Assembly (NCBI GenBank): GCA_905178155.1
Contig: CAJINV010000023.1
Location: 293,874-357,873, forward strand
Direction of reading: 5' to 3'
Origin: Amoebophrya sp. A120
Taxonomy: Eukaryota > Protista > Dinoflagellata
Length of the DNA: 64,000 bases
A program made the position numbers and the translations under genes. Under the pieces are notes generated by a model. That model did no database searches. It saw only the letters and a list, made by a program, of their open reading frames with translations, and was not told where the DNA came from. Below are positions 41,001 to 64,000 of this stretch, one piece after another (position 1 is the first letter of the stretch; each line of letters starts with the position of its first letter).

Positions 41001-41408
41001 ATCACGCTCACCGAGGATCTGAGTCTGTCGCACCTCTCCAAAAATGGTATGCAATGCAAAAGCATCGTGCAACTCGTAGTTGTAATGGCAGGCATGCATT
41101 ACAAATCCAGATTTCAAGGTAAATCCGCATTACAAATGACATTTGTAATGCTGAGCAAATTTGTAATGCAATCCATACTAAGTAGTACGAGACTTTTGCA
41201 ATGCATAACCGGCAACGCGCAGCAAAATGAAGTCGCCCCCGGCTGGAAGCTGGTCCTGCTGAACGGGCGACAAATCTCGCACCTCCCCCTCAGCGAAATT
41301 ATGGCGGAATTAGGGCGGATGAAGGAGAAGCAGAAGGTTTTCATCGAGGTCAGAAACCCCAAGCCGCTCGGCAGAATGCGGATCTTCGTCGAGACGCACT
41401 TCGAGTGA
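32041..41408 (+). CDS. Ankyrin-repeat protein with a C-terminal PDZ-like domain; about 28 exons
   Basis: Manual splicing restores ankyrin repeats across junctions (QNTPFLCAA, GNTALHLSV, GWTP-VFLAV, GNTPLHL-ACQY, GRTPLHIAC, GWTPLLCAANE-GH, GQTP-LFF) and a PDZ-like tail (KN-GNAQQNEVAPGWKLVLLNGRQI). There are 19 DR/TIR introns, 6 GT-AG introns (32896-33095, 34222-34356, 35928-36100, 36475-37447, 39800-39940, 40334-40443) and 2 short uncertain ones. Confidence 0.9.
32159..32437 (+). mobile_element. Non-canonical intron / introner with about 55-bp TIR
   Basis: DR TTGA; TIR GTCAGGATTGAAATCGTCAAAGTTGAAAT / ATTTCAACTTTGTCGATTTCAAACCTGAC; join ATDL-IFDL. Confidence 0.85.
32590..32745 (+). mobile_element. 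Non-canonical intron / introner, family B
   Basis: DR CGGGA; join FLLG-KQVS. Confidence 0.9.
33161..33315 (+). mobile_element. Non-canonical intron / introner, family B
   Basis: DR CCGAC; join AKAD-IANA. Confidence 0.9.
33362..33638 (+). mobile_element. Non-canonical intron / introner, family A
   Basis: DR CCTCG/GCTCG; join TPLHL-ACQY. Confidence 0.9.
33921..34140 (+). mobile_element. Non-canonical intron / introner
   Basis: DR GATGA; join EWAVM-NGHY. Confidence 0.9.
34653..34920 (+). mobile_element. Non-canonical intron / introner, family A
   Basis: DR ACGAG; join CAANE-GHY. Confidence 0.92.
34945..35141 (+). mobile_element. Non-canonical intron / introner
   Basis: TIR TATCCAAGAAAAAAACG / CGTTTTTTTCTTGGATA; DR CGTG; join TCAC-ILKH. 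Confidence 0.9.
35233..35561 (+). mobile_element. Non-canonical intron / introner, family D
   Basis: DR GCCAA; TIR AAAATCCCCC / GGGGGATTTT; join VLQP-NFEN. Confidence 0.85.
35625..35783 (+). mobile_element. Non-canonical intron / introner, family B
   Basis: DR CCGGA; join VLIR-IFAD. Confidence 0.9.
36160..36383 (+). mobile_element. Degenerate non-canonical intron
   Basis: TIR remnant GGGAAAATTT / AAATTTTCCC; DR CACA; join QRSH-FRKR. Confidence 0.6.
37652..37914 (+). mobile_element. Non-canonical intron / introner, family A
   Basis: DR TGACA/CGACA; join LTGD-KKGD. Confidence 0.88.
38279..38432 (+). mobile_element. Non-canonical intron / introner, family B
   Basis: DR GCCAT; join SVA-IELLL. 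Confidence 0.9.
38495..38722 (+). mobile_element. Non-canonical intron / introner, family A
   Basis: DR ACCGT/GCCGT; join GQTP-LFFH. Confidence 0.88.
39085..39375 (+). mobile_element. Non-canonical intron / introner, family C
   Basis: DR CGAAG; TIR TATCCTGAGTAAAAATGTCCCCA / TGGGGACATTTTTACTCAGGATA; join DFAK-DPVI. Confidence 0.92.
39499..39759 (+). mobile_element. Non-canonical intron / introner, family A
   Basis: DR AAGAG/AAGGG; close relative of 40707-40963. Confidence 0.85.
40002..40266 (+). mobile_element. Non-canonical intron / introner
   Basis: TIR TATGAAACTGCACAA / TTGTGCAATCTCATA; DR GATGA/AATGA; join INRD-DDDD. Confidence 0.8.
40481..40647 (+). mobile_element. Non-canonical intron / introner, family B
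   Basis: DR GAAGA; join QTPK-NRFN. Confidence 0.9.
40707..40963 (+). mobile_element. Non-canonical intron / introner, family A
   Basis: DR AGACG; join NEKT-LTYR. Confidence 0.9.
41047..41211 (+). mobile_element. Non-canonical intron / introner, family B
   Basis: TIR TATGCAATGCAAAAG / CTTTTGCAATGCATA; degenerate DR AATGG/ACCGG; join SKN-GNAQ. Confidence 0.85.
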
Positions 41409-43154: not shown

Positions 43155-46100
43155 ATGATGAGCGGTCACGAGCATCATAGAGCGATGTCTATTGAAAAAT
43201 GCTCGAGTGTATGCACATCGCCTCCGCGGGCCGTCCGGACGAACACGGGCAACGAAGGTGGTGGTACGGCGGCGACCTCCCCGGCGGCGGTTACCGCGGT
43301 GGACAAGGTCGGTTTGGCCGTGGCCCCCACTTGCACTTTTATTGCGCCGAATAAAAGCAGCGGAGGTCTAGGTCGTGTTGGCGGACGCGCTACCGTGGAC
43401 GAGGAGATGAGGATAGAAAACGCAGAGATGATGCCCGAATCGATGAAGGGCATGATGAAGAAGAGATGGAAAGCCAGAAGATTATCGCTTCTGCCCTGTG
43501 GTACCATGAAGGTCATCAAGGTGGTCGACTACTTCGAGGATTCCGCCTCCGTTACCAGGACCAGCACAACCAACGAGAGTTCATTGCGTCTACCTGCTTT
43601 TCATCGTGCATACCAACCGCGAGGCATTTCAGCAGAAGAGCAAGAGCGCGTTAGCCAAGTTCTTCGAGATGGCGGAGGTGGCCCACACCACTGCCCCGCC
43701 AGGCCAAGAGCATGTCGCAGGAGCTGTTGCAGTGCCACGACTCGAGCAGGACAACGTTTCGGTGCGGCAGCGGCGACTGCTTCATCTTTGCCACGCAGGG
43801 CGTGTAGCTCGTCGTCACGGGGAGGTGGAATTCCGCGGTGTCAACAACATCCTGGGAGCTGGAGTATCAAATACCGAAAACTGATCGCGCAAGAACGCGT
43901 TACAAAGTACGCGTGCGTAGCGTCGTCTACATTCTTAAAGCATGACGAGAAAAAGAAAACACAGTGCGACGACATGGGCTTTGTGTATGGGTGTGTGGTC
44001 GCCGACGTGGCGGTTTTTCATTCGTTAAGTGTAAGAACCAGAGGTGGCATGTTCTTTGACATTTTCTGCTCGTCCACCAGCAAGTTTTCGATTCCATATC
44101 ACCACTGCATAGATGTTTGCTGCTCTTGCTCACCGTGCAGTGGTACGACATCACAGACTTCTTGTTCTGCCCTTTTGCACCACCATCGCGGGGGCCGTGG
44201 GGAGATGAGGACATGAGCTGCACTTCATCGAGACCTTCGACTGCTGCGTCGACACGACCCGCAACTACAAGGCACGACCAGGGCGAAGATGATCATCTCC
44301 AAGGAGAGTTGTGCGTAGTTGGTCGTGCTAGAACTACAACTACGAAACTCCTCCCGCGGAGGAATACCGACATCACACGACCACCTTCGACAACGACATC
44401 AGCCTGCTCGTATAGTAACACCTTCGGTGCAGCAGGAGCACACGCTATAACGCTCACTCGCCTCGGACACCGGGTGCAGATGAAGACCAAGCTTCAGCCA
44501 CGCGGCGTGGGAGCTGCGCGTGCCGCAGCTGCGAAGAGCAGCAGAGAAGGAAGTGCTACAGGTGGTCGTGGTGGAGGCACGACGATGAGGACGGCCGCAG
44601 GAGCATCAAATTCAGGGTCACCCGGGCGGAGGAAGGACAAGGACTCGTCGTCGTCGTCCGACAAGGCCAAAAATCCAGCGCCCTCGAAAAATAAAACGAA
44701 CCCGGCTGCTGTAGTGCCCATGGAGGTCGTCGACGATCAGCTGCTATCCCGTGAAAAATTTCACAAATTTAATGCAAAATAAAGGATGATCGCAGACATG
44801 CATGACAGATTTGGATCTCGTGTTTTGCATTCTGGTTTTTATTTGGTATCAGTACGTAGCAAAATAACACGCGAGTTTACGATTTTATTCTGGAGGAAGG
44901 TAGTTTTTTCAGCTCCAGTGAATTTTTCCTCCTGTACCTCTTCGAATCTCGAGCTTGTTAAAACAAACTTTTTGCGATGCATAGCGGCAGGACACCAGTA
45001 AATCTTCTTCGTTGACAAGCACCACACCCTCTTCCAGCTTCAAAAGCCCCAGCATCGTGCCGACTGCTGTAGCCGTGGCAGCTCCTGTTGGGCGAGAGGA
45101 GCTACCGCAGAAAACCTCGCAGCAACCGAACCTATTGGCGGCCAACAACAACGGCGTCAAAGGCCGCGAGTCATCTGGCGGGTCTACTGCTGCTGTTTCC
45201 TCCTCCTGTGACGCATCTTGCAAGTCGGACGAGAGCGGCAGTCGACATCATCTACCAGGCGGAGGTATGATCCAAAAAAGAGACGTGTGATCATGTCGGT
45301 GCAGCTTTTTAGGTATTGAGATTGACTTTAGAGGAGCATATTAAGCGTAAGATAAATAAAGTAGTGCTGCTGTTTCTTGGCATCAAGACAAAAAGCTGTC
45401 ATGCGCATCACAACAGCGGTGTGGTTGGCATTGGCCTATGTTGTTGGCATATAATGATGAGTACGAGTAAATAGATTGACAGTGACACACGTTCCTTTTG
45501 CCATACGGGGCCCTGCCACCAACGTGGGCTGTGCTGGTGGAAACAGAAGCGCAGACGGCAGCTGCTCGTCGCTGTCCAAGTTGGCCTCGAGCTTTTGCCG
45601 GTGTTTTCGCAAGAAGAGCTCCGGGCTGTCGAGTGGTGATCAACATGTGTCGCCCTCTCCAGCTGCAGTCGATAATTATGAGCAGCACGTGGAGGAAGCA
45701 AACGTCGTCTCCCCCCCGCGGGCCTCTGGTCATCGTCCACCAAGCCGCGGGCTACAAGGCGCCCCCGAGGATGGTGCTGCAGCAACCGGTGGAGCCGCCG
45801 TTGTGCCAGATGGAGAAACGACTAGTACGGCACGAGGACCTGGAGGTGCAGCAGCAGGGCCAGGGGACCTGCAAGCAGGAGGAATTGCAGGACGAGCAGC
45901 AGGATCCTCTCCGAAAGCAGGACGTCGGGATGAAAGCATGAAATATCAAATGCAAAAATGTCTGGGTCTGGAAACTTGTGATGCTGTGTGGCGTATCATG
46001 AGGAGGCCACAATTGCGGGCTCAGCATGACAAGTTCCTGAGCCTCTAGGTGTTGCCTATTCCGCATGACAAACTACTTCTGTGCATGACAGAAAAGTTGG

Positions 46101-46650
46101 GCTCTTTGGTAATGTGCATGACAGATTTAAGAATCATGCCAGACAAGCATGACAAACTTGCATTCTTCCAGACCCAGACATTTTTACATTTGATATGAAA
46201 AGCGCCAGCGCAATCGTCGAGGAAGAGATGAACCCTTTTCACGAGGTATCAAATGTAAAAATGTCTGGGTCTGGAAGAATGCAACTTGTGATGCTGCATT
46301 TGGATTCCAAAAAAAACTGTATTGCATGAGTACCAAAGGGAATGTAATTTTTGCTACGCGGAAAGGGCATTTGTCATGCGGAATAGGCATCAAGAAGCTC
46401 TCCAAAAATCTGTGATGCTAGGGCATGCATCACAGACATCAGGGCTCATGCAAAACGTGCATGACAAGTGTCAGAATCTTCCAGACCCAGACATTTTTGC
46501 ATTTGTTACGAGGTGGAGGCCACGGCAATCACGAAATCTGCGACCGCTGGTCAAACGCTAGGGGATAAAGAACATCCCACGGAACAGGACGACGCTGCTG
46601 TTGCAATGTCGGTGACGGAGGAAAGTCGAGTCTCGCAAGATATGATGTGA
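43155..46650 (+). CDS. Low-complexity S/T/A/G-rich hypothetical protein, multi-exon (5' part unresolved)
   Basis: From about 44117 onward, removing 44744-44987, 45265-45482 (GT-AG), 45943-46199 and 46246-46512 gives one frame ending SQDMM*. The link to the 43125 ORF is not resolved. Confidence 0.6.
44744..44987 (+). mobile_element. Degenerate non-canonical intron
   Basis: TAT...ATA ends; DR GCTGC/GCGGC; join DDQL-QDTS in frame with the 45012 ORF. Confidence 0.7.
45943..46199 (+). mobile_element. Non-canonical intron / introner, family A
   Basis: DR TGAAA; near-perfect 30-bp TIR. Confidence 0.9.
46246..46512 (+). mobile_element. Introner, family A, with GT-AG ends supplied by its direct repeat
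   Basis: DR CGAGG; join PFHE-VEAT. Confidence 0.9.
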
Positions 46651-46778
46651 ACAAAAATGTGCCTGCTCGTAACTTTGACTTTTTCTACTTCAATAACCGG
46701 AATTCTAGAACAAAATGAGGATTTGTAACTGCTAATCTGCATGGTATGATGAGTTTCCAGATTGAAAAAATTGACAAA

Positions 46779-49760
46779 CATGTGCGGCTGTGAGCCTGGT
46801 GTCTCATGTCTCATGTCTTGGACCCGTGTCATGACATGAGGACACGAACATGGACATGACACGGCCGATTTGATGTCCATGTCTTCGTGTCCCGACATCC
46901 CAAGCCAGGACATGAGACATGAGACATGGCCAATGTTCATGCTCATGTCCCATGTCCGCGACACGAGACACGAGACATGAGACATGGGCATCCGCGGCTG
47001 ACTCTGGTCCAGACCAGAAGACATGAGACATGGGACATGGCGTTCTCATGTCTCATGTCTCGGGTCCCAAGACATGAGACATGAGACATGGCCATCCGCG
47101 GCCGACTCTGGTCCAGACCGGAAGACATGAGACATGAGACATGGGACGTGGCGTTCTCATGTCTCATGTCTCATGTCTGGGGTCTCAAGTAAGACATGAG
47201 ACATGGCCATCTGCGGCCGACTCTGATCCAGACCGGAAGACATGAGACATGAGACATGGCGTCCCCATGTCTCATGTCTCATGTCTCGTGTCCCAAGACA
47301 TGAGACATGAGACATGAGACATGAGACATGGCCATCTGCGGCCGACTCTGGTCCAGACCGGAAGACATGAGACATGGGACATGGCGTTCTCATGTCTCAT
47401 GTCTTGTGTCCCAAGACATGAGACATGGGACATGGCCATCCGCGGCCGACTCTGGTCCAGACCGGAAGACATGAGACATGGGACACGGCGTTCTCATGTC
47501 TCATGTCTCATGTCTCGTGTCTCAAGACATGAGACATGAGACATGGCCATCCGCGGCCGACTCTGGTCCAGACCGGAAGACATGAGACATGAGACATGAG
47601 ACATGGGACATGGCGTTCTCATGTCTCATGTCTTGTGTCTCGTGTCCCAAGACATGAGACATGAGACACGGCCATCCGCGGCCGACTCTGGCTAAGGCCG
47701 GAAGACATGAGACATGGGGCATGGCGTCCCCATGTCTCATGTCTCGTGTCCCAAGACACAAGACACGAGACATGACCGCCCGCGGCCGACTCTGCTCCAG
47801 GCCGGAAGACATGAGACATGGGGCATGATGTTCTCATGTCTCATGTCTCGTGTCTCAAGACACAAGACATGGGCATCCTTGGCTGACTCTGGTCCAGGCC
47901 GGAAGACATGAGACGTGAGACATGGGGCATGGTGTTCCTATGTCGCATGTCTTGTGTCTCGTGTCCCAAGACATGAGACATGGGACACGACCGTCCGCGG
48001 CCGACTCTGGTTCAGGCCGGAAGACATGAGACATGGGGCATGGCGTTCTCATGTTTCGTCCTGGGATGTCGGGAATGGGACACTGGGCACAAAACACCCA
48101 CCCCCCCCTAGGCCTAGGTAGCCGCGCGCTCAGGTTGCGGGTTTGCCTATGGTTGTCTTCTTGTCCCATTTCATCAACCAAAGCAACCAAACCTCAACCA
48201 ACCCACACGAAGTGCCGCCACCAGACCATCCGGCCGCGAGCGACCGATGCTGCCCCAAGCTGCAGTTGGCTCATCTGGCCGCCCCCGACCAGACGACTCG
48301 TGCAGCTGCTGGCCCGAGCCGCCGCTGGCTCGTCTGGCCGCGCCGCCCCTGACTCGGAGGTCGCCGCTAGCCCGCGGGCCTCGTGCCGCCGCTGACCCGA
48401 GCCGCCGCTGGCTCGTCTGGCCGCCCCTGACCCGACGGCCCGTGCCGCCGCTGGCCCGAGCCGCTGGCGCATCGTGGGCCGCCGCTGGCTCGTCTGACCG
48501 CCCCTGACTCGGAGGCCGCCGCTAACCCGAGGGCCTCGTGCCGCCGCTGACCCGAGCCGCCGCTGGCTCGTCTGGCCGCCCCTGACCCGACGGCTCGCGC
48601 CGCCGCTGGCCCGGGCCGCTGGCGCATCGTGGGCCACCGCTGGCTCGTCTGACCGTCCGCCCCTGACTCGGAGGCCGCCGCTAACCCGAGGGCCTCGCGC
48701 CGCCGCTGACCGCGTGCCGCCGCTGACTCGAGCCGAGGGCCTCGTGCCGCCGCTGACGCGTGCCGCCGCTGACCCGAGCCGCTACTGGCTCGTCTCATGG
48801 GATGTCATGCGCCACGTCTCATGTCTCGTGTCCTGGGACGCGAGACATGGGACACGGACACACGGCGATGTCATGCCCCATGTCTCATGTCTCGAGACAC
48901 GAGTCACATGGGACACGAGACACGAGACATGGGTCACGGACACGGCGAAGTCATGTCCCATGTCCTGAGACATGGGACATGGGACACGGCGAAGTCATGT
49001 CTCATGTCTCATGTCCTGGGACACGAGACATGGGACACGGCGAAGTCATGTCTCATGTCTCATGTCCTGGGACGCGAGACATGGGACATGGGGCATGGGA
49101 CACGGCGAGGTCATGTCCTGTGTCTCATGTCTCATGTCCTGGGACACGAGACATGGGACACGGCGAAGTCATGCTCATGTCTCACGTCTCGTGTCCTGAG
49201 ACACGAGACATGGGACATGGGACGCGGCGATGTCATGTCCCGTGTCTCATGTCTCATGTCCTGGGACACGAGACACGAGACATGGGACACGGCGAAGTCA
49301 TGTCTCATGTCTCATGTCCTGAGACGCGAGACATGGGACATGGGACACGGCGATGTCATGTCCCGTGTCTCATGTCTCATGTCCTGGGACACGAGACATG
49401 GGACATGGGACACGGCGATGTCATGTCCCGTGTCTCATGTCTCATGTCCTGGGACACGAGACATGAGACATGGGACACGGCGATGTCATGTCCCATGTCT
49501 CATGTCCTGTGTCCTACAGCCTCAGCCAGAAAGTGTGGCGGATGGCCATGTCTCATGTCTCATGTCATGACTTTCGGGTCCACCAAGACATGAGACATGG
49601 GACATGAGCAGGGCATGTTCCTCTGACCCAGGGCCGGTACGTGTCGGGACACGAAGACATGGACATCAAATCGGCCGTGTCATGTCCATGTTCGTGTCCT
49701 CATGTCATGACACGGGTCCAAGACATGAGACATGAGACACCAGGCTCACAGCCGCACATA
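46779..49760. mobile_element. Foldback-like non-autonomous TIR element (about 2.98 kb) built from CATGAGA heptamer arrays
   Basis: 46780-46897 is the reverse complement of 49642-49759 (about 118 bp). Interior: heptamer-rich higher-order units, a short unique core and GC-rich repeats at 48310-48795. No clear TSD. Confidence 0.85.
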
Positions 49761-50444
49761 CCCAAATTGACGACTGTACAGCATACACGCACAGACGCAA
49801 TTTTTGACACAGATGATTGCCAATATACGAGCGGAAGCGGCTCTTTTGCCTGTGCTCTATCTGCATTGCATACATTTTTTTATTTTGTTATACCAAGTTA
49901 TTAGCACCGCGATACGAAGATTGCAACCGCTGCTATTCCAAGTATATGCTGCTATGTGCTGCACGCAAAAATGCGGAAAAGTTTGAGTATTGATCAAGCG
50001 ACGGCGCATTTTTTTCCATACAGGCCGAGGAGATGCCACAAATCACACCGGTATCGATATCCTACAGAAAATCACATCTTCCAGAGGCATGATATTAGCA
50101 CCAGAAAATAAGAAAGTCAAGTTGCGGGGTTGACTGCTACAGAAAAGGTTCTTGATTGCTACTCAGGGTTTGGGACCACCTCTTTCATTTTAAATCCGCT
50201 ATGAAAATGATTTATAGCGATATGCACGACGCCTGTCCCTGTGCATTGCCTCTCTTGTGGTCATGATATGCGCAAAAAGATTGCAGACCTTTTTCTGTAG
50301 CGCGTGTCGCTACACAGACTCAGTTTTTGGCACCATTTTTGGGGGTTGTGCTTTTCCGCAGGATAATGGATAGAACATATCAAGGGCGTCCTCGACATGT
50401 TGAAAGACAAAGTAGAGAAGCGCGGCGCGAAGGTTCCACCTATG

Positions 50445-50629
50445 TATCCTGTGCAAAAGTATCGTACGTGCTGTACTTAATTGCATGCGTAACAAATTTC
50501 CTATTCCTCAGCATGAAGCATGGATTTTGTGGAAAAGATCAGGTGCTGGGAAACAAGATGTGTGACCATGCTGGTGCATACCTGCAATTTAGGACGAGTG
50601 CGATATCATGAATTCTTTTGCAATGCATA
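50445..50629. mobile_element. Family B element within a duplicated segment, copy 1
   Basis: TATCCTGTGCAAAAGTATCGTAC ... TTTTGCAATGCATA; DR not evident. Confidence 0.7.
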
Positions 50630-50631
50630 TT

Positions 50632-51021
50632 CTACTTCATATTTCTGCGACGATCTCTTGCTGCGATGATGATGAGCATGAAGTTCAATAGGTGCAGAAC
50701 TTGTTTGAAGATGTGATTGCAGAAAGTGCCTGTGAGGTCTGGTCCACCGGGTGTCCCTGGTACAGCGAGGCTCCCTCTGCTGCTCTGGTGGAAATGTTGC
50801 TGCTGGCCGCCCCCGCGGTAGAAGTGGCGCTGTTGGCCGCCGCCATAGAACTGCTGGCCGTATCCCTGCGTCCCGTCTCCAGGGTGCCAATAGCCGCCCC
50901 AGGAATTGTTGCTTTGGGCGCCATGCCCGTGGTACTGGGGTGTCCTGCCCGCGCTGGAGTTGCTGGAACGGCTGCTGGCGCCGCCTCCCATCGCGATCAT
51001 CGGGTTACCCGCCCCGCTCAT
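50632..51021 (-). CDS. Possible G/Q/S-rich exon fragment
   Basis: Compositionally biased peptide (GYGQQFYGGGQQRHFYRGGGQQQ); no full gene model. Confidence 0.3.
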   Translation of the reverse strand: MSGAGNPMIAMGGGASSRSSNSSAGRTPQYHGHGAQSNNSWGGYWHPGDGTQGYGQQFYGGGQQRHFYRGGGQQQHFHQSSRGSLAVPGTPGGPDLTGTFCNHIFKQVLHLLNFMLIIIAARDRRRNMK

Positions 51022-51814
51022 GTCGCGTCCTGCCCAGTTTAATTCTTATCTCCCCGACCTATCTGCAGAGAAACCTGCGGTTCCCCGCCGAAAAACAACG
51101 TCGCATCTGAAGAAAAACGGCCGCCGATCCCGGAGAAAGCGCCCACCAAGCTCTTAAACCTTCTCCCCCGGAAGGGGGCGCGGACGCGGTTGCACTTTGC
51201 TTGTGGTTTGACTCCAGACGCGGCGGCGCAGTCGATTTTTTCCGATACAGGCGTCTTCTAGTTCACTCGAGAATCGCCGTCGGGTCGTGTCTGAAGGGGA
51301 ACATACGCACTTGCTCCTTGCCGGTGATGTGTGGCCTCGGAAGAAGAGGAAGCTTCACAACGGCTTTTGCTGGTGAATTACTGCGCCGCTGCGCGGGGGT
51401 GGAAGCGTTGTTGGGGGCTAGCTTGGGAGCGTCCGGCGGGTGCCGCCGTGCCGTCGCGGCGCCCCCCTCCCCGCCCCCCCCCAGGCCCTCTTTCGCATGC
51501 TGGCGCGCATGCGAAATTAGGGCGCGCGCGCTGCCTATTTTCGCTTTTGCTCTAAAGCAGTGCTACTGCTGTGCGGAGCACGTCGGCACGCACACTGCCA
51601 GTCGTGCCATAGGCCAAGTGCCTGCGCAGCCCTTCCGCGCTACCGGCCTCGTAGACGTAGAGCGACCGCTTCTATCGGAGGCGCCTGTAAGTGTGCCGGG
51701 CACTTCCACTCCCGTGGATTGTTGTCTTCTTGCTTCAAAGCTTGTCACTGGCTTTGCCAGGGCGTCCTCGACATGTTGAAAGACAAAGCAGAGAAGCGCG
51801 CGAAGGTTCCTATG

Positions 51815-51944
51815 TATCCTGTGCAAAAGTACTATCGTACGTGGTAGTAAGTAATTGCATGCGTAACGAATTTTCTATTGGGGAATTCGAATTGTCCCTC
51901 GAAGAGACAGCCATGACGAGTGCGATATACTTTTGCGATGCATA
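51815..51944. mobile_element. Family B element within a duplicated segment, copy 2
   Basis: Same termini and same insertion context as 50445-50629, with a shorter interior. Confidence 0.7.
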
Positions 51945-52358
51945 TTCCACTTACTTAATATTTCTGCGGCGATCTGTTGCTGCGATGAGCATGAAGTTCA
52001 ATATGTGCAGAACTTGTTTTTAGGATGTGATTGAAGAAAGTTCCTTTATTTCTCTGTCTTTGCGTGTGTCGAAAAAACCAGGAGCGAATATATGAGCGTG
52101 TGCATCAACTCCCGCTCCTCCACCATTTGGCATGAAGAATACCAAAAGTACACTCTTCGCCCTACTTTGATAGAAGTACTTTAAGCATGACAACTTTGAT
52201 AGTTCAAGCATTCGTGAAACCCGTTTACAGACTTTTTAAATAGCACACAGCAAGTGCGTTCACTTGCTGTTGCGTGTCTTGCTGCCGGCAGAAGATTTGA
52301 AATACAGGGGGGGAGAGTCATTCATCCACTACCATAGAAAACGCTAACACTCTACCAG

Positions 52359-55300
52359 ATAAAACCCTGTGATGCTGCAAGGGCACAAGGGGGAGACACG
52401 TCGATCCTGCGGGAGGAAGCGGCAGTACCCCTGCGCGCGAGTGGTGAGCACGCTACCGGCAAGGCCGTGGACGCCGAGGCCGTTTATCCTGTGTAAAAAA
52501 ACAGCCCCATCCCAGAGGCAAGATCGCGATAATTCTGGGCTACTTTTGCGCATGACAAAGTTGCTTGGGTCTCTAATGTAGTGGTGTGTGGCTAGTAAGG
52601 CGGCATGAAAAATCTAGCCTCTAAGCCTAATTCGAACGTAAAAGAGCCCTAGAAAAAATAAGAAAATGCGCGTCATCGGGCTGCGCATGACACAAGATCT
52701 CAGCTTGTCCTCGTGTGGGAACGTTTAGTCAGGAGGCCAGTGCATGCATATTTACATGGCAGCTTTTGGGTGGGGACAATTTTCGTCAGGATATCGTCGC
52801 GTCGATTCCTATGGACGTCGAGATGACTCCTGTCGCCGAGAATCGAGTGCATCTTCAACGAAACGAGCATGAAACGGAGATACAGTCGCGGCGCGACCCC
52901 ATATGCAAAGAAAAAAGCTTGTTACACTCACTACTTTGCAGGTTGTGCATGCCAGATTTTTCTGGCGTCGCAGATTTTCTTGTATTGTGCTTGCACAAGA
53001 GAAATCGGCTAGGAAATTTGACTGCTGTGATGCATTTTCATCATGCTACTTGAGAGACAATTTTGTATTGCAAAAATGCGCAATAGCGAATTTTTTCGAT
53101 TTCATACCCCGTCGTGGACTCGGTTGCGCAGCAGCTGGAAAGTATGTCCCTCGAAGAGGCTGCCACGATGAATAAAGGCGGTGAGGAACAAGGCACGTCC
53201 GGGGTCTCAGCTCCTGCGGGGGAGAAGATTGCAGTCTCGGGCGGGGCCGACGAAGATGAGAAAATGCCGCAAGCCACTTCTGCAGAAGAGTCCGAGGACA
53301 CCGCCCGACTGCTATCCACTACGTCGAAAGAGCTGGGCTTATGCATTCGCAATTACATTTGTCTGGGTCTGGGAAGTTGTCATGCTGAAGAATTCTGTTT
53401 GGTAAAATAAGTGACCTGCTTCTTATGCTACAGTACAACATTTCACATTTCTTGGGTATTCGTAGTTGTATGCGAGAATTTCAGCATTACAAATCTCATC
53501 ATGATGTGCTTCCACACGACCCAGGAGACGGCGTCTTTGCAATGGATATGGCACCGTGTCCGGCGAGACTCCGCATGTGGATCAGCCTGCTATCGAAAGG
53601 AACGATCCCCCCTCCCCATATGAAAACGAAATTTCTGATGCTGGTTTTGTGTACACAAATCCAAGCTGTCTTGCTGGAGAGTACTGCAGACCCATACCAA
53701 GTGTACGTAGAGAGGTTTTGGCCTAGGCGCTTAGCATGAAAAACGCCCGCGCTGTAGGCCCAGCAGCATGACAAAACGCCTGCACAGTGCGGCGGTTGTC
53801 TGTGGAGTTGCCTTTTGGCAAGACAGACGCAATTTGTGGCCACAAATCAGCATCACAAATATCCAAAAGTATACCTTTCCAGTATGGGGAGGGGGGATTT
53901 TTCCTTTTGATACCTGCCCCGGCGAACACACCAGAACGGGGAACCCGTGCCGACAGCCAGGAGGGTTCCGGCGCGGCGAACACACCATATGCATTGCAAA
54001 TATGTCTGGGTCTGGATGGTTGGGTCTTGTCATGCTAAATCTGAATCATGTAAAAATCTGTATTGCATGATTACCAAAAGCTGTCCACGTGTGACCTAAT
54101 CGAGATGCAGTTTCTGATGCAGGATAGGCATGATGGAGACCTCACAGAATCTGTCACGCGAGGCTCTGCATACCAGACCTCATGGGTCATGAAAAACCTG
54201 CATGACAAGTCTGGCACTCTTCCAGACCCACACACTTTTGCAGTTGATACACCAGAGCGGGGAACCCGTACCGACAGCCAGGGCTCTACATCGGAAAAAC
54301 CAGCGGCGAAACCACCACCAGGCAGGGGCAAGCCGTATGGATTGCAAATATATTTGTATTTTCTGGCTCCACCTCTCGGTCGTGTGTCGTGTAAGACATG
54401 AGTCAAAACTTTGCCATGTTTGATGTCGCAAAGCAGCGCACCCACCGGTTTTGTATTGTATTGTTTTGAAAAAAATGCAAATTCCGCGGGCGCTAAGTAT
54501 GTGAAACAAGCAGTCGCGAATCAAGAAAAACTTGCCATCCGTGGGTGCGTAATAATTCTGGTTTTGCTTATCGTCTACAGGATGGCGTCATAATTTTCCA
54601 AACCAACACAAACACTGGAAGAACTGCATATAATTTGCAACTTTCATAAACCGCCCCGGATCTTCGAGGGAGGCAGGAGTCGCGTTCCATCAAACGGTAG
54701 CGCCGGTGGAGTTGCTGCGAAAGCGGTCGTGGGATCCAGCAGCCCAAGCAGAAGTGCGGATAATAAGCAGGACGCGCGAAGCAGCGCGTCGTCTCTATCA
54801 ACTGCAAGATCGCCCTATGCATTGCAAAAGTACTATCGTACTCGTATTGATGCATAACAAATTTCCTCAGCATGAGAAAGAAAATTTGTAAATGCGCATT
54901 TACCTTACGAGCAAAATTTCTAATGTATGCATGTTTGCAATTACTACGAGTGCGACACTTTTGCACAGGATACACCCTGGGAGCGTCTTGCCTCGGCGTC
55001 CGTGGGCGACCTGCCGCGAATGGATGTGGATTGGATGGTCACATCCTCACAATACGCATTGGAACATCAAAATTGTCCGGGTCTGGAAGTAGAATCCAAA
55101 CTTGTCATGCTAAATCTGAATCGTACGAAATGAAATTAAATCTGTGTTGTACATGTACTATGACTTCCGACACAATTTACCCACTTCTTGCCACGCAACC
55201 GGCAAAGCTCTCATGCGGACTTGGTAAAGGCTAAGGCATTGTACAAATTCGAGGCTCGTCTTGCAGGATCATGTGTGAAGATGCTTTTGGTTCGTGCAGC

Positions 55301-58300
55301 ATCCCAGACCAGTTTTGTGATCCACGAGATGCATAGCAAATCTTGCTCTCTTCCAGAAGATCCAGACATATTTGCACTGGACACGCAGATGACCAGTGCT
55401 GTGGTTTGCCAGGCGTCTCGTTGCGCGGTATGAATGGCAAAAATGTCTGGGCCTGGAAGATTGGAACACTTGTCATGCACATCTTGCATGAACGATGATG
55501 CCTGTAATGCATGACCTAGCATCAGAGATTTTGCGAGGGCTTCCTGATGCCTATACCGCATGAGGAACACGAATACCCCCACCGCGTAGCATAAACTGAA
55601 CTCCTCTTGCTCCTCACGCAATACAGATTTTTTTGGAATCCACAGACAGCATGACAAGTTCCATCCTCCCGCCGGACCCAGACATTTTTGCACTTGATAC
55701 GCGGACCGCGAAGACGACGGAGATTCAGACGACCAGGGCAGACCGTCGGGCGTCAGCCAGCGGCAGCTATCAAGTGCAAATATGTCTGGTTCTTGAAACT
55801 TATGATGCTAAAATGTGCATGATGAAAACACTTCCTCATACAGGAAAGCATAAAAAATCTGCGCAGAGCTTTATCATACGAACTCCGCATGAGAAGCTGT
55901 GTTTTTATATGACGTGACAGGCTGCCACTTTTGTTGGTCATGCAACAGCAACACAGATTTGACAGGAATGCAGGACCAGCATGAAAAGTTCCAACTTTCC
56001 AGACCCAGACAGATTTGCATTGGATACCAGCGGCCGCCTCGCGACGATGATGAGGACAGCTTCGAAAAGCTCGAGGAGTATGCATTGCAAATATGTCTGG
56101 GTCTGGAAACTTGTGATGCATGTCAGTAAAAAGAAAGCTAAGCGCACTGTAATGCACCGCCAGGCATGACAGATTTATCCTTGGCTTCGTGTTGCGTATT
56201 TCGCATGATAAACAGCGTTTTTGCATGACAGATAAGAGGAGCTCTTGCTGGCCGCACAATACAGAGCTCAGTTTCATGCCCGACTAGCATGACAAATCCC
56301 GCAATCTTCCAGACCCAGACATTTTTGCAATCCATAAGGAGGCAGCCGATCGAATGTCCTACGGAGTATCCAAGCCATCACCAGCTGGCGCGCAGAAGAA
56401 TGGTGAAGACGGCGATGATGATGATGATGATGACGAAAATGACGGCTGCAACGGCGAGTTTTTCGACGAGCAGTCAGAAAGCGGGCGCTGCAGCTTCGGA
56501 CCCGCGGCAGCGAGTGACCCGGGTGTGTGGGGGGCGAATTTCCTCGTTGGATCACTGACGCAGCAGTTTGATCAGGTTGCTCAGCTTGACGCGGTCGGGA
56601 GGCAGGATTCGAAAGGCGGAGGTCGATCGTCCTATCATGAGTGAAAACCCCCTTTTTACCCCATGTTGTTCAAAGTGATGCTGAATTTGTCGTATACACG
56701 AAGCAGGAGCCCCGTCACGTTTGGGGTCCCGGGCCTGCCGGTTTTGTTCCCGCGCGCTCCCTCGCTGAACGCCTGGAAGAATACGGCAGGAAGCATCGAT
56801 GGCGCAGGCAGCAGCCTGCGCACCTGGGGAGAGCGCATTTCAAGTAATATTAGTTTGAGGCCTTTGGTGGAAGTCCCGGGCAGTTTTGTTTATACGAATG
56901 TGACCCCCGCAAAATATTCCCTGGGCCTTTTGTAGCGCAGTGCGGCGCCCTATTTTGAGGCAAAGCCCAGCCCTTTTGCTTTTCGCGCGCTCAGCCACTG
57001 CGCGCCCGGAAATAAAAAAGCGGCGGGGGTGTTTCCCTGCCGCCCGGCCTCCTTCCATCCGCTATTACATTACGGGAAGCAGCGGCCAAAAGATTTTCGG
57101 CAATTCCCCCCCTGGGGTGCGGCTTTTCGGCCGCCCGGCTCTCGCCATTTTATCACGGGGGCCAGCGGCAACAACTTTTTCGGCAATTCCGCCTCCTAGG
57201 GTGCTGCTTTTCGGCCGCCCGGCTTTCGCCATTTTATCACGGGGGCCAGCGGTACACAGGTGAAATATGCCCCCGCCCCCGGAAGTGAGCAATTCTGGGG
57301 TGCTTAGGAGGCACCCCATCTGGTGCTCAGGAAGCACCCCGTCTGGTGCTTAAGCGCGTCGCGCCAGGGCTGCGTGCTTTATTAGGGTCAATATCTCGCG
57401 CTTGGCTGAAGAGTCAAGCTGCGCTCAATGAAAAAGAGGAACGGGGCATCTCTACTGCCCCAGACCGCGGGTTCCATCGCCATAGAAATACACCTAAACC
57501 ACCTCGATCGGACCATGGTGACTATGGGGCCTGTATTTTATCACTTAGTTATAGTGTTGCGATTCCGACGCTAGTATTTCTACTGCCCTTCGTTATACTT
57601 ACTCTGCCTGCCTTCGGCAAGAAGTTACTTAACTCCTAGTCCGAAGTTGGCTCTCGGGCAAGCTTCAAGCTTTTGGCGCGGTCATGCACAGAAACGAAAT
57701 CTGGAAAAAGCTCGACAGGCGAGCCCAATTATGGATCGGCAAGTCCGCCGATCCGGGTGTCACATAGAAACCCGATCTGCCGGAATCCGGCGGCGCAGAA
57801 GGAGCCGACTTCGTCGCCGCCGAATCGGGCCTGTAGCATGCGGATTCCCTTTAGAAAAGCCGCGATCTTTTGAAGCGCCAGATCCCGGCAGATCGGGTGT
57901 CTATGTGACACCCGGATCGGCGGACTTGCCGCATCGGACAGGTGCAGCGCTCACCTTTTGGCGCCTGCATGCAAAAACCCAACGTGTGTGCTGCAAAATG
58001 TCACAAGTTGAGCGCTCGTATGCCTACGATACCACAGCGCTCAGGGTGTGAAGCTGGCTCATCGCCGGAATGGATCATCTTTGCTCCCTGAGCAGATGGC
58101 CATCACCCCATGAGCTTGAGGTCGCGTAGCCTACTGCGTTTTTGTTCATCGCGGCGCCGTGCGTAATATTTTTACCCTTGGTCGAGAGGTAACAACTGGA
58201 ACGGGCCAGGAGATTTTGTTCCCGCTGGTCAAACAAGGTTACTTGCCCGCCTGGCCAGGACCAGGAGTCTACTTTCTTGCTCCTGGGGCTCGAAGTTCGG

Positions 58301-61300
58301 GCCCCCGCGGTATCAAAGGGGCAGATGGGGTGCTTCCTAAGCACCAGATGGGGTGCCTCCTAAGCACCCCAGAAGTGCTGATTTCCGGGGGCGGGGGCAT
58401 ATTTCACTTGTGTAAGCGGCAACAACTTTTTCGGCAATTCCGCCTCCTAGGGTGCTGCTTTTCGGCCGCCCGGCTCTCGCTATTTTATCACGGGGGCCAG
58501 CGGCAACAACTTTCTCGGCAATCCCACCTCCTAGGGTGCTGCTTTTCGGCCGCCCGGCTCTCGCTATTTTATCACGGGGGCCAGCGGCAGCAACTTTTTC
58601 GGCAATTCCACCTCCTAGGGTGCTGCTTTTCGGCCGCCCGGCTCTCGCTATTTTATCACGGGGGCCAGCGGCAACAACTTTTTCGGCAATTCCACCTCCT
58701 AGGGTGCTGCTTTTCGGCCGCCCGGCTCTCGCTATTTTATCACGGGGGCCAGCGGCAACAACTTTTTCGGCAATTCCACCTCCTAGGGTGCTGCTTTTCG
58801 GCCGCCCGGCTCTCGCTATTTTATCACGGGGGCCAGCGGCAACAACTTTTTCGGCAATTCCACCTCCTAGGGTGCTGCTTTTCGGCCGCCCGGCTCTCGC
58901 TATTTTATCACGGGGGCCAGCGGCAACAACTTTTTCGGCAATTCCACCTCCTAGGGTGCTGCTTTTCGGCCGCCCGGCTCTCGCTATTTTATCACGGGGG
59001 CCAGCGGCAACAACTTTTTCGGCAATTCCACCTCCTAGGGTGCTGCTTTTCGGCCGCCCGGCTCTCGCTATTTTATCACGGGGGCCAGCGGCAACAACTT
59101 TTTCGGCAATTCCACCTCCTAGGGTGCTGCTTTTCGGCCGCCCGGCTCTCGCTATTTTATCACGGGGGCCAGCGGCAACAACTTTTTCGGCAATTCCACC
59201 TCCTAGGGTGCTGCTTTTCGGCCGCCCGGCTCTCGCTATTTTATCACGGGGGCCAGCGGCAACAACTTTTTCGGCAATTCCACCTCCTAGGGTGCTGCTT
59301 TTCGGCCGCCCGGCTCTCGCTATTTTATCACGGGGGCCAGCGGCAACAACTTTTTCGGCAATTCCACCTCCTAGGGTGCTGCTTTTCGGCCGCCCGGCTC
59401 TCGCTATTTTATCACGGGGGCCAGCGGCAACAACTTTTTCGGCAATTCCACCTCCTAGGGTGCTGCTTTTCGGCCGCCCGGCTCTCGCTATTTTATCACG
59501 GGGGCCAGCGGCAACAACTTTTTCGGCAATTCCACCTCCTAGGGTGCTGCTTTTCGGCCGCCCGGCTCTCGCTATTTTATCACGGGGGCCAGCGGCAACA
59601 ACTTTTTCGGCAATTCCACCTCCTAGGGTGCTGCTTTTCGGCCGCCCGGCTCTCGCTATTTTATCACGGGGGCCAGCGGCAACAACTTTTTCGGCAATTC
59701 CACCTCCTAGGGTGCTGCTTTTCGGCCGCCCGGCTCTCGCTATTTTATCACGGGGGCCAGCGGCAACAACTTTTTCGGCAATTCCACCTCCTAGGGTGCT
59801 GCTTTTCGGCCGCCCGGCTCTCGCTATTTTATCACGGGGGCCAGCGGCAACAACTTTTTCGGCAATTCCACCTCCTAGGGTGCTGCTTTTCGGCCGCCCG
59901 GCTCTCGCTATTTTATCACGGGGGCCAGCGGCAACAACTTTTTCGGCAATTCCACCTCCTAGGGTGCTGCTTTTCGGCCGCCCGGCTCTCGCTATTTTAT
60001 CACGGGGGCCAGCGGCAACAACTTTTTCGGCAATTCCACCTCCTAGGGTGCTGCTTTTCGGCCGCCCGGCTCTCGCTATTTTATCACGGGGGCCAGCGGC
60101 AACAACTTTTTCGGCAATTCCACCTCCTAGGGTGCTGCTTTTCGGCCGCCCGGCTCTCGCTATTTTATCACGGGGGCCAGCGGCAACAACTTTTTCGGCA
60201 ATTCCACCTCCTAGGGTGCTGCTTTTCGGCCGCCCGGCTCTCGCTATTTTATCACGGGGGCCAGCGGCAACAACTTTTTCGGCAATTCCACCTCCTAGGG
60301 TGCTGCTTTTCGGCCGCCCGGCTCTCGCTATTTTATCACGGGGGCCAGCGGCAACAACTTTTTCGGCAATTCCACCTCCTAGGGTGCTGCTTTTCGGCCG
60401 CCCGGCTCTCGCTATTTTATCACGGGGGCCAGCGGCAACAACTTTTTCGGCAATTCCACCTCCTAGGGTGCTGCTTTTCGGCCGCCCGGCTCTCGCTATT
60501 TTATCACGGGGGCCAGCGGCAACAACTTTTTCGGCAATTCCACCTCCTAGGGTGCTGCTTTTCGGCCGCCCGGCTCTCGCTATTTTATCACGGGGGCCAG
60601 CGGCAGCAACTTGCTCGGCAATCCCACCTCCTAGGGTGCTGCTTTTCGGCCGCCCGGCTCTCGCTATTTTATCACGGGGGCCAGCGGCAAAAACTTTTTC
60701 GGCAATTCCACCTCCTAGGGTGCTGCTTTTCGGCCGCCCGGTAAGTATGGGAGCGAGGGGGGGCGGGGTTTTCATTTTCATACGCCTCGGGCCGCACCTT
60801 CGCGGACGCCGGCCGGGGGAGCTCCTCCGCGCTCGAAGCTCTCGTCCGCCAACAGCCGCAATCGGCAGCTACGCATGAAGAGCGCTGCCGGGTCGAGAGC
60901 GGCGTCGCGAGGCGGCAGCCGGGCAGGGTCAGCGTGCCCCTCCGCAACGGCCACGGCCGAGGACGTCGTGGCGCGGCTTATCGCCTCGGACTCGAATTCC
61001 GAGAGTGATGGCCGGACAAGCGGACACGGGAGTCGTGCCGAGTCTAAAAACGCTTCGGAAGATTCAGGTGAGTCTGGTGGGCGCGGCTCAGATGGCGAGG
61101 ACGAGGACGGCGGGCGTGTCTCCTTTTCCAGCGCAAATTATGCGTTGCAAACATGGCTGCCTCTGGAAGTAAAGCTGTGATGTGCGTTTCAGATCACGCA
61201 GAAATCTGGTATGCATGGATAGCAAAAGTTGCTCACCCACTACTTGTCACTAGAAGAAAGGACTTGGCATGCAGCGGGCTAGGCCTTGAGAAACATCCTG

Positions 61301-63267
61301 CAAGCCTGTATTGGTGCTAGGCTTTGTTGTAAGCTAGATCATCATCTGGGCCACACGAAAACAGCAGGACAAATAACAGCTGCAGTCTTTTGGTTTTGCA
61401 GTGGATACAAATAACGGCATGTCATCATCCCACAGTGCCTGCGGGGCGCTCGACCCCGGCCCACGGTCCTTCGGGGCCTTTGCGCGTGCTAGTCGCAAGC
61501 CCTGTGGTAATGGCAACGTTGAGCGAATCATGGGGAAACGGCACGGGGGACTCGGCATGTCGCGAGTAGAAAACAGTTATCCCCTGCAGACAATTTGTTG
61601 TGTGAGAAGGGCCCTCTTGGGCACTTTGCAAGTGAAGGAGTCACTTGCGGTGGTGGCAATGAATAAGCAACACCGTCACGACGATCGAAAGTAACGAAGT
61701 GGTCGTGTACAGAGCTTTTGCATGTCAGGCTTTACGTTGCAGCGTTTATGCCTGTGGTGCCGGGGGGGGGGGGTGTCATGCGGAACAGGAAACAAAAGTG
61801 ACATTATGCGGACCAGGCACGTCTCGCAGGACAAAGCACTCCTCTCTGGCTATTCGTACAGCTATTGACGTTCCTACACGAGGATCTTAGCAGGGGATAA
61901 CAGTCACAAGCAGTATCTAGCCAAGAAGCAGAGGCAAGAAGAAGCGGACGCTTCCGGCGCAGGGGACGGGAGCAGCGGAGGAGCAGCTAGCTCCGGGTTG
62001 TATCGGGGAGTAGGAGGTGGCGGCAACACGGGCAGGCCTCCGCCAGGGATGTTTTCATCGCAACTGAGTACGCAGATGAAGTCCTCCGCCGCGGATATGC
62101 GCTCCATGTCGGAGACAGACTTCGTTCCAAGTGAAAAGACTGAGCACAATATCCACTGCAAATAATGATGTGTAATCTGAATCTCTATCTCCCCCGAAGA
62201 ACAACAATAAATGTGCGATGAGCTCCCTCTCACGAAGAGCAATCAAGCTGAAGAGACATTTTGTAAAATTGCATTCGAGGAGCCACCGCATCCGGACCTC
62301 GTCGATTGTATGACAAACCGTGGACGCCTGCGCAGCTCTCGTTGTCATGAAGTGTCTAGTTATTCTTATTTGCCACGGGAGCCTTGCATAAAAGGGCTTT
62401 TGGAAAAAGTCTTGCCGTGCTTTGCTGCACCTGGAAAGAACCTTACTTGTTGTATCACTCACAAGCTGTAGTGGCAGACCGAATTTATTACAAAGATATT
62501 TGCAGTGGATACGAAGAATGGCGGAGCGATTTCTCCAGCACGACCAGAAGACGAAGAACCAAGCTGGGGAGAAGCCGGCAACGAATCTCCGCAGCCCTCC
62601 CGGTAGCGACATGACGGGGAAGGAAATGCCCTCGGCGAAGGTGGACTTGGTCTCTTCGTGTAGAAGTAGTACTGCGGGGGCCCCGCACACCGACGAGAGT
62701 CGTGGTAATGGCAGCGAGCCCCAGGACGAGCTTCTCTGCACAGCACCCGTGGAAGTGGATCACCAAGTAGAGTACGGCTGTGCTAACGCCGCTGGCAGCG
62801 CCAGCGGCATACAGGCCGGGGGAACACGAGATGCAAGTGCAGGACCAGAAAAACGACACCCTGCGGGGGCACCAGGAGATCCTCGAGTCTTCGGTGATGA
62901 CGGTAGCAAACCGAGCCTCGCGCCGGGGCGCAGTACAGGCACGAATGAGGCCGCAGCTATGACGGTGTCGAGGGGAGAAAGCTGCACGCCGGGAACGATC
63001 GCGGACCGGGTGCCTGTCTCGGCAGGTAATTTATAATATCAGTCGGCAAAGGTTTTGTTGGGTACAATGGTCATGGTTATGGTGAAATACAGACAAACAA
63101 AAACACAAAAGCATCCGTGTATTTTGTAAAAGGTTGCCCAGTTGTTTGTAGCTGATGAGCGTATGGCGCATTGCGCCAGCCCGAAAATGCTGTTCCTCGC
63201 TTGCCCGCTGCGGAACGGCCGGAGGACTCGTGGGGAACGGGTGGGGAAGCAAGTGGCGGAGGACTAG
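52359..63267 (+). CDS. Long intrinsically disordered (S/G/A/D/E/P-rich) hypothetical protein; at least 17 exons, 5' end upstream and unresolved
   Basis: Starts at a canonical acceptor (GCTAAC...CCAG, 52358). Removing 15 successive DR/TIR inserts keeps one stop-free frame to a GT donor at 63026. The last exon (63152-63267) is tentative. Confidence 0.8.
52484..52797 (+). mobile_element. Non-canonical intron / introner, degenerate family C
   Basis: DR CCGT/TCGT; TATCCTG ... CAGGATA; join AEAV-ASIP. Confidence 0.8.
52901..53110 (+). mobile_element. Non-canonical intron / introner
   Basis: DR CCCC; join RRDP-VVDS. Confidence 0.8.
53339..53552 (+). mobile_element. Non-canonical intron / introner, degenerate family A
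   Basis: DR GGGC/TGGC; join KELG-TVSG. Confidence 0.75.
53590..53916 (+). mobile_element. Non-canonical intron / introner, family D
   Basis: DR CCTGC; TIR TATCGAAAGGAACGATCCCCCCTCCCCATA / TATGGGGAGGGGGGATTTTTCCTTTTGATA. Confidence 0.9.
53987..54253 (+). mobile_element. Non-canonical intron / introner, family A
   Basis: DR CACCA; removal restores a second NTPERGTR peptide repeat; interior is the reverse complement of 4047-4321. Confidence 0.92.
54335..54652 (+). mobile_element. Non-canonical intron / introner
   Basis: DR AGCCG/AACCG; join RGKP-PRIF. Confidence 0.75.
54815..54976 (+). mobile_element. Non-canonical intron / introner, family B
   Basis: DR CGCCC/CACCC; join ARSP-WERL. Confidence 0.88.
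55052..55387 (+). mobile_element. Non-canonical intron / introner, degenerate family A
   Basis: DR CACA/CGCA; join TSSQ-MTSA. Confidence 0.75.
55428..55703 (+). mobile_element. Non-canonical intron / introner, family A
   Basis: DR CGCGG; join SRCA-DRED. Confidence 0.88.
55767..56030 (+). mobile_element. Non-canonical intron / introner, family A
   Basis: DR GCAGC/CCAGC; join SQRQ-RPPR. Confidence 0.88.
56078..56340 (+). mobile_element. Non-canonical intron / introner, family A
   Basis: DR AGGAG; join KLEE-AADR. Confidence 0.9.
57253..58414. mobile_element. 1162-bp non-autonomous TIR transposon inserted in the minisatellite
   Basis: About 90-bp TIRs (TACACAGGTGAAATATGCCCCCGCCCCCGGAA... / ...TTCCGGGGGCGGGGGCATATTTCACTTGTGTA); perfect 5-bp TSD AGCGG. 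Confidence 0.9.
57730..57940. repeat. Internal inverted repeat (about 55-bp arms), possible nested MITE
   Basis: 57737-57792 pairs with 57876-57931 with few mismatches; starts with TAT; no TSD seen. Confidence 0.7.
61138..61411 (+). mobile_element. Non-canonical intron / introner, degenerate family A
   Basis: DR CAAAT; join SSAN-NGMS. Confidence 0.85.
61577..61903 (+). mobile_element. Non-canonical intron / introner
   Basis: TIR TATCCCCTGC / GCAGGGGATA; DR ACAGT; join VENS-HKQY. Confidence 0.88.
62149..62515 (+). mobile_element. Non-canonical intron / introner
   Basis: TIR TATCCACTGCAAATA / TATTTGCAGTGGATA; weak DR; join TEH-RMAERF in frame with the 62422 ORF. Confidence 0.8.
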
Positions 63268-63289: not shown

Positions 63290-64000
63290 CAGGCAAAACA
63301 GGACGGGAGGCGGGCGATTTCGGGGACGGCTCTCGGGCCGGCGGGCCGTCTGCCTGCCTCTCTCTAGAAGAAAAGCGAAAAGCGCGCCAGGGGCGGCGCC
63401 GATCCATCATAGACGAGCCGGCAAAACAGGCAGGGCGGGGCTTGGGAGATTTCGCAGGCGGCCCTCGGGCCGGAGAGCCGTCTGCCCCCTTTTAGAAGAA
63501 ACGAGCAAAAACGAAAAGCGCAAAGAGCGCAAGGGGTGGCGCAGATCATCGAGCCGGCAAAACAGGAGGGGGCGCGGGCGATTTCGTAGACGGCCACCGC
63601 GCCGGCGAGATGTCTCGCTGCTTCGTTCCTTTTAGGTAGAGGAAACGAGCAAAAACGAAAAGCGAAAAGAGCGAAAGGGGCGACGCAGATCAGAGAGCCG
63701 GCAAGACAGGACGGGGCGTGGGCGATTTCGTAGACGGCACCCGGGCCGGAGGGGCGTCAGCTTGCTTTTAGAGGAAACGGGCAAAAACGGAAAGCGCAAA
63801 GCGCGCAAGGGGTGGCGCAGATCATAGAGCCGGCAAAACCTGGCGAAACAGGAGCGGACGCGGGCGATTTCGTAGACGGCTCTCGGGCCGGAGAGACGTC
63901 TGCTTCCTTTCAGAAGAAACGAGCAAAAACGGAAAGCGCAAAGCGCGCAAGGGGTGGCGCAGATCATAGAGCCGGCAAAAACTGGCGAAACAGGAGCGGA
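63290..64000. repeat. Purine-rich tandem repeat with a period of about 130-145 bp, running off the window
   Basis: GAAACGAGCAAAAACG...GCAAGGGGTGGCGCAGATCA...GAGCCGGCAAAA...GGCGATTTCGTAGACGG recurs about 5 times. Confidence 0.85.

Follow-up and report, generated by a model that had tools for sequence, protein, structure and literature searches.

How does the dinoflagellate Amoebophrya sp. A120 find the ends of introns that lack GT-AG borders? The removal of tens of thousands of such introns, apparently without U1, is treated as an open question in Farhat 2021 (PMC7789003; here and below, statements on published work refer to the accessible parts of each source). The window, a 64,000-nucleotide stretch of contig CAJINV010000023.1, contains a 4,155-nt non-canonical intron at 56632..60786 (all features are on the plus strand unless noted) within a host gene at 43155..63027. 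This is a spliced intron that probably grew from an A120-type introner, and its ends are probably chosen by a TAT-N7-AAA motif together with end-to-end pairing.

That the 4,155-nt stretch is one intron, excised exactly, is confirmed by contigs of all four RNA-type runs (X3-X6, one sample of one study, with RNA status being a computed guess). In each run, contigs join 56630/1 to 60786/7 with 4,155 nt gone, and the 30 letters preceding 60786 are those of window positions 56601-56630. A single 564-nt contig of X3 maps to 56337-56631 plus 60786-60858, and contigs of the RNA-type runs skip introners that are present in a DNA-like contig of X1. The junction is the one that a first-pass annotation of the window had predicted for a single intron. 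Its in-frame join of the open reading frames (ORFs) at 56354 and 60875 also holds, as the frame is kept on removal of 4,155 nt and each flanking exon has one open frame of three. Neither ORF is a gene start; both are inner exons of one gene, the upstream exon lying at 56341..56631 (X3 contig 56337-56631; residues 1121-1217 of the public protein P0001) and the downstream exon at 60787..61137 (RNA-type contigs; P0001 residues 1218-1334). Three later introner joins had been proposed as well; two of them appear in all four RNA-type runs, and the third is seen through the public protein and the frame. Neither use of the GTAAGT at 60741 nor transcripts bearing the repeat array of the intron were seen in the X3-X6 contigs; X3 has no cover at 56744-58400 and X3-X6 have none at 60742-60771, and a gap in cover proves nothing by itself.

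An exon query returned one public protein at 100% identity, P0001 (1,656 aa), whose label is Amoebophrya sp. A120. Its gaps match introns of the window, including those of 4,155, 3,385 and 1,926 nt, so the 4,155-nt intron was already implicit in the public annotation. Removal of 19 introner-type introns by one rule, together with one GT-AG intron, yields a single open frame of 1,117 codons, and this rule-based gene model agrees with P0001 at 20 of 20 modelled introns. The host gene has at least 24 exons and encodes a 1,656-aa low-complexity protein without a Pfam family: none was matched in eight exon or element frames or in P0001, and Rfam gave no matches. Two introners with decayed ends, at 46247-46508 and 55053-55383 (TTA and ACA for ATA; a TAC start), are still missing from P0001.

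The window is dense with 150-370-bp elements that start with TAT, end with ATA and have inverted ends. The direct repeat on either side of them measures 5 bp, a correction to the first-pass annotation, and its copies agree perfectly for 18 of the 40 introners compared across two genes. These 40 introner-type introns, selected by TA start and excluding the introner at 38054, whose 3′ end is not resolved, form the basis of the pairing, motif and register counts. At 15.8 times their median of 263.5 nt, the 4,155-nt intron bears out the earlier figure of about 15 times the usual length. A120 introners are described as carrying TAT, seven looser bases and at least three A, with inverted end repeats, a 3-5-nt direct repeat over the borders and non GT-AG ends (Farhat 2021, PMC7789003). 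The 4,155-nt intron shares these traits, with TAT-N7-AAA, inverted ends, a border repeat, and ends that read CT..CC when the cut is put behind the fourth base of the duplication, or else CC..GC. Its end signature and 5-bp repeat also agree with family 38 of Gozashti 2025 (PMC12130899, supplementary file 8), given as ‘5-bp TSD, TA/TA Termini’ (TSD, target-site duplication), about 808 bp, terminal inverted repeat (TIR) DNA.

The host element, as defined by its sequence ends, is of introner type and runs 4,150 bp from TAT to ATA (56633..60782). Comparison of its two flanks reveals a decayed target duplication, CGTCC on the 5′ side (56628..56632) and CGCCT on the 3′ side (60783..60787), with three of five bases alike. 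The 5′ arm of a predicted terminal helix (56637..56651) forms 15 bp with 60765-60781, and a local rival hairpin extends to 56664. This helix, 11 bp plus 4 bp, lies in the range of the 8-20-nt inverted repeats between the ends of A120 introners. The 3′ arm of the host element, placed at 60765..60782 by fold and motif analysis, matches the opening bases of the introner at 38054 at 15 of 15 positions, the sole such match noted in the window.

Between these ends, the left interior of about 450 bp is mostly unique DNA with decayed units at its end, where weak local alignments mark two strongly decayed relatives of an 84-bp unit (56940..57080). Tandem-repeat and unit alignment then place the left part of an 84-bp array, 2.1 diverged units, at 57080..57252 and the right part, 27.7 units, at 58415..60741; in the latter, 23 units are identical in succession and the edge units are diverged. 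Divergence of the units declines from left to right. The first-pass count of about 30 units split by an inserted element is thus upheld, as is the 1,162-bp length of that element. This nested element (57253..58414, no strand assigned) runs from TAC to GTA and has 93-bp inverted ends (57253-57345/58322-58414, 94% complementary), 23-bp subterminal repeats and a perfect 5-bp AGCGG duplication at a unit boundary of the array. Its longest ATG frame is 106 aa with no coding sign, and three frames tried gave no Pfam match. With inverted ends and a target duplication and without transposase, it has the makings of a putative non-autonomous TIR DNA transposon. Since the flanking array units on both sides share one variant, it probably arrived after the array began. 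The inverted repeat reported inside it is present as a hairpin at 57737..57931 (no strand assigned), where no target duplication was recognised; its arms are 65 nt at 89%, around a 65-nt loop, and not 55 bp. Depth on the nested element in X1 is 83-163 versus about 24 for single-copy sequence, with six variant sites whose depth is close to that of single-copy sequence, which fits a few dispersed copies, depth sums not being copy numbers. The end pattern of the element had no matches in metagenome contigs.

Some candidate features of the interior were rejected. One more small element, considered at 56693-56894, was dropped for want of a duplication, and the long open frames of the array (874, 843 and 820 aa) are a by-product of the stop-free 84-bp unit. 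A close kinship of the nested-element and host ends was likewise discarded, the host end falling outside the top 8 of 82 ends.

The same gene carries a second long introner-type intron of 3,385 nt (46640..50024), identified by the frame model and the P0001 gap, for which RNA support is indirect. Within it lies a 2,980-bp element (46780-49759) whose 118-bp inverted ends, ATGTG/CACAT, are perfect and whose duplication is at most 2 bp. The element is filled with three satellite blocks, and the host minus the element measures 400 bp. This second case supports the earlier proposal that introns of this type can accommodate both expanding arrays and nested elements.

The exact cut site can be narrowed down because the two duplication copies of the 4,155-nt intron differ: RNA places the cut after base 3 or 4. 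The registers allowed are 3-4 at this intron, 4-5 at 39500 and 3-4 at 62150. Base 4 is the sole value common to 39500 and 62150 and is compatible with all introner junctions of two public proteins. Cutting behind the fourth of the five duplicated bases, within the 3 or 4 that RNA shows here, gives an intron of the form N-TAT...ATA-NNNN; the border position is called unknown in the Fig. 3 legend of Farhat 2021 (PMC7789003). In the base-4 register, T and A occupy intron positions 2 and 3 in 40 of 40 introns, an invariance that is partly built in because of the selection by TA start. The first base is free (A in 15, G in 12, C in 7 and T in 6), and the last dinucleotide takes 13 different forms. 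Canonical introns of both genes start with GTA, and the introner TA at positions 2-3 may stand in for the TA of this canonical donor. As a side observation, base 4 of the duplication, which adjoins both cut sites, differs between copies in one of the 40 introns versus 5-9 at other positions (32041-63027), a small count that is partly biased by intron finding.

What, then, selects these ends over everything that lies between them? In the minimum-energy fold of 56620-60800, a helix of 15 bp holds the two ends together, and with a 20-nt arm the true end is the best pairing among 76 RTA sites downstream. With a 30-nt arm, the 3′ end of the nested element pairs with the host 5′ arm at -26.9 kcal/mol, equal to the -26.8 of the true end, and pairing alone therefore fails to explain the splice choice. 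The TAT-N7-AAA motif is exact at the host 3′ end and offset by one base at the 5′ end. On a motif profile the host ends score 8.3 (5′) and 12.8 (3′) bits and the nested-element ends -2.0 and -1.3. Since no interior 3′-like site exceeds 3.5 bits versus the 12.8 of the true end, motif reading alone could choose correctly here. Because the equal-pairing decoy of -1.3 bits is passed over, the 4,155-nt intron needs either the motif or self-closure of the nested element, whose own ends pair at -63.4 kcal/mol (30 nt). The 3,385-nt intron holds the opposite decoy: a 15-bit site at 49872 that pairs at -8.3 is skipped and an end of 1 bit that pairs at -21.1 is used, so this intron needs pairing. In the 40-intron set, pairing ranks the true 3′ end above every interior TA site in 37 introns, and the motif does so in 37 as well; the failures of the two signals fall on different introns, and none fails both. 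As each signal picks 37 of 40, no intron defeats both and mirror decoys are skipped, both signals together are favoured.

Several points weigh against this reading. In the 4.2-kb fold the terminal helix is better by just 6.9 kcal/mol than the best helix-free fold, and the 5′ arm is predicted to prefer its own hairpin locally. The helix also forms in two of three shuffled interiors; the natural interior is therefore not needed for it in the model, and the idea that this interior has a special part in bringing the ends together found no support. Motif and complementarity are both relics of transposon ends, so the counts of 37 of 40 are no proof of RNA pairing. G-U pairs are not significantly above A-C mismatches (60:48, p=0.29), with further counts of 13:12, 19:17 and 24:25. 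Given the rival pairing, the motif and the non-significant G-U excess, the first-pass view that pairing of the ends carries splicing over this length is not established. The register comes partly from public gene models, whose borders may embed assumptions. Lastly, all RNA evidence consists of contigs of one sample, and the raw-read runs X10/X11 gave 0/3 reads.

In a model that combines motif and pairing, a small non-autonomous element of a few hundred bases would have inserted in an exon. An internal stretch would have amplified into the 84-bp tandem array, the nested element would have landed at a unit boundary, and the right array block would have expanded or homogenised afterwards. The spliceosome would then remove the whole intron in one step. 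The interior would present no competing end motif, the array units would fold as local hairpins, and the 93-bp ends of the nested element would pair with each other (-63 versus -27 kcal/mol for the cross pair), hiding the sole decoy for the host 5′ arm.

A twintron would order these events differently: the nested 1,162-bp element would itself be an introner and be spliced first, restoring one perfect 84-bp unit, and the 2,988-nt remainder would follow. As in spliced introners, the ends of the nested element are TA, AAA stands at positions 11-13 and a perfect 5-bp duplication flanks it, and it would start with GT in the same register. One spliced intron of the host gene (55053) does start with TAC, and members of 0.8-1.2 kb are on record among the A120 introner families (PMC12130899). 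Both nested ends, however, read TACA, whereas spliced introners have G or C at position 4 in 40 of 41 ends on the 5′ side and in all 41 on the 3′ side, with A in none, and the motif scores of the nested element lie below those of 39 of the 40 ends on the 5′ side and 37 of the 40 on the 3′ side. The insert of the 3,385-nt intron is without TA ends, yet the public protein lacks that intron all the same. We consider splicing in two steps unlikely. Doubtful to the same degree is a bracket-like matching of ends, in which hairpins would close inside out, the inner element would leave first, the outer ends would meet over 3 kb of satellite, and a U1-less spliceosome would read an N-TAT donor with a fixed base-4 cut.

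Somewhat less plausible still is recognition by the motif only, where the ends would be read separately by proteins or small nuclear RNA in the style of exon definition, complementarity would be a transposon leftover, and a motif-free interior would let length be tolerated. The gap between 3.5 and 12.8 bits in the present intron and the lack of a significant G-U excess are both in keeping with this. Moreover, some spliced introns pair weakly (-6.5, -9.4 and -10.8 kcal/mol over 30 nt), and neighbouring introners often pair better with the end of another intron than with their own. In 3 of 40 introns, nonetheless, the motif score of an interior site matches or exceeds that of the true end, most clearly at the 15-bit decoy 49872.

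Array length rests on the assembly, because none of the listed contigs crosses the whole intron. An 861-nt contig of X1 is identical to the window over 56311-57171, and summed X1 depth is 797 at 57146 versus about 24 on single-copy contigs, which fits about 30 units as a rough measure, summed depth over contigs being unequal to copy number and X1 possibly being the window’s own sample. That the splice is real and the 4.15-kb length partly an assembly product, with the array over-expanded or homogenised, is a very unlikely option: 23 identical units in succession and the missing full-length contig would suit it, but the difference-free 861-nt contig and a unit depth about 30 times single copy speak against it.

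Set beside published introners, the 4,155-nt intron is a compound, long, RNA-supported member of a published intron class, and it is not unique even within its own gene. It differs from the introns of Farhat 2021 (PMC7789003) in its length of 4,155 nt and its compound nature; intron analysis there was limited to 40-1,000 bp, with a non-canonical mean of 240 nt, and Table 1 puts the longest intron of A120 at 35,152 bp, type unstated. Secondary transposable element insertions in introners are reported by Gozashti 2022 (PMC9860276), with family medians of 30-654 nt. Several A120 families span 3-19 thousand positions in an unlabelled column (PMC12130899; 50 of 58 rows), which we read as long-insert members; a nested or array-filled member is not described in the accessible text of Gozashti 2025 (PMC12130899). 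In the literature on introners, splicing and recursive splicing, figures and part of the supplements aside, no description of a nested, array-filled multi-kb Amoebophrya introner was found.

Analogies exist in other lineages. Nonconventional introns of euglenids reach several thousand nucleotides (PMC11282704), and those of euglenids and diplonemids likewise have ends that are paired together and an origin resembling miniature inverted-repeat transposable elements (PMC11282704, PMC6221363, PMC12621601). They differ in carrying CAG/CTG at +4 to +6, in being released as circles and in probably using other machinery, and their lineage is unrelated. The euglenid CAG/CTG at +4 to +6 and -8 to -6 was not found at A120 ends, which read N-TAT and ATA-NNNN. 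Fungal stwintrons (PMC8469720, PMC9024468, PMC12403724) share the placement of one intron-like unit inside another; unlike the present case, they are canonical U2 introns whose inner unit splits a splice signal and leaves first, whereas here the inner element sits mid-intron.

Other features of the window accompany the intron. The 1,926-nt GT-AG intron of the host gene (50433-52358) contains two introner-like units (50445-50629 and 51815-51944) with strong end motifs, neither of them used in P0001, and, near 51760, part of the upstream exon in a further copy, which is not used in P0001 either. A 142-bp tandem repeat of 4.1 copies (63415-63980) lies directly past the last mapped exon of the host gene. 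The neighbouring gene at 32041-41210 has at least 26 introns, mostly of introner type; an exon query returned one protein at 100% identity, P0002 (1,037 aa), which also bears the label Amoebophrya sp. A120. Pfam matches of P0002 are PF00023, PF12796 and related accessions, which we take to be ankyrin repeats. Finally, a 308-bp unit recurs in three arrays, at 2508-3523 (3.3 copies), 9604-11481 (6.1) and 15939-18277 (7.6), which are 79-88% alike.

Short introners with perfect repeats can neither separate pairing from motif reading nor set the cut site. The host gene separates the two signals, as its two long introns hold skipped decoys of opposite type, and its decayed duplications point to a cut after base 4. 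Published counts limited to 1 kb miss compound introns, of which there are two in the present set of 40 and which give satellites and other transposons shelter within genes. The value of the 4,155-nt intron lies mainly in serving as a natural test of how A120 introners are recognised for splicing.

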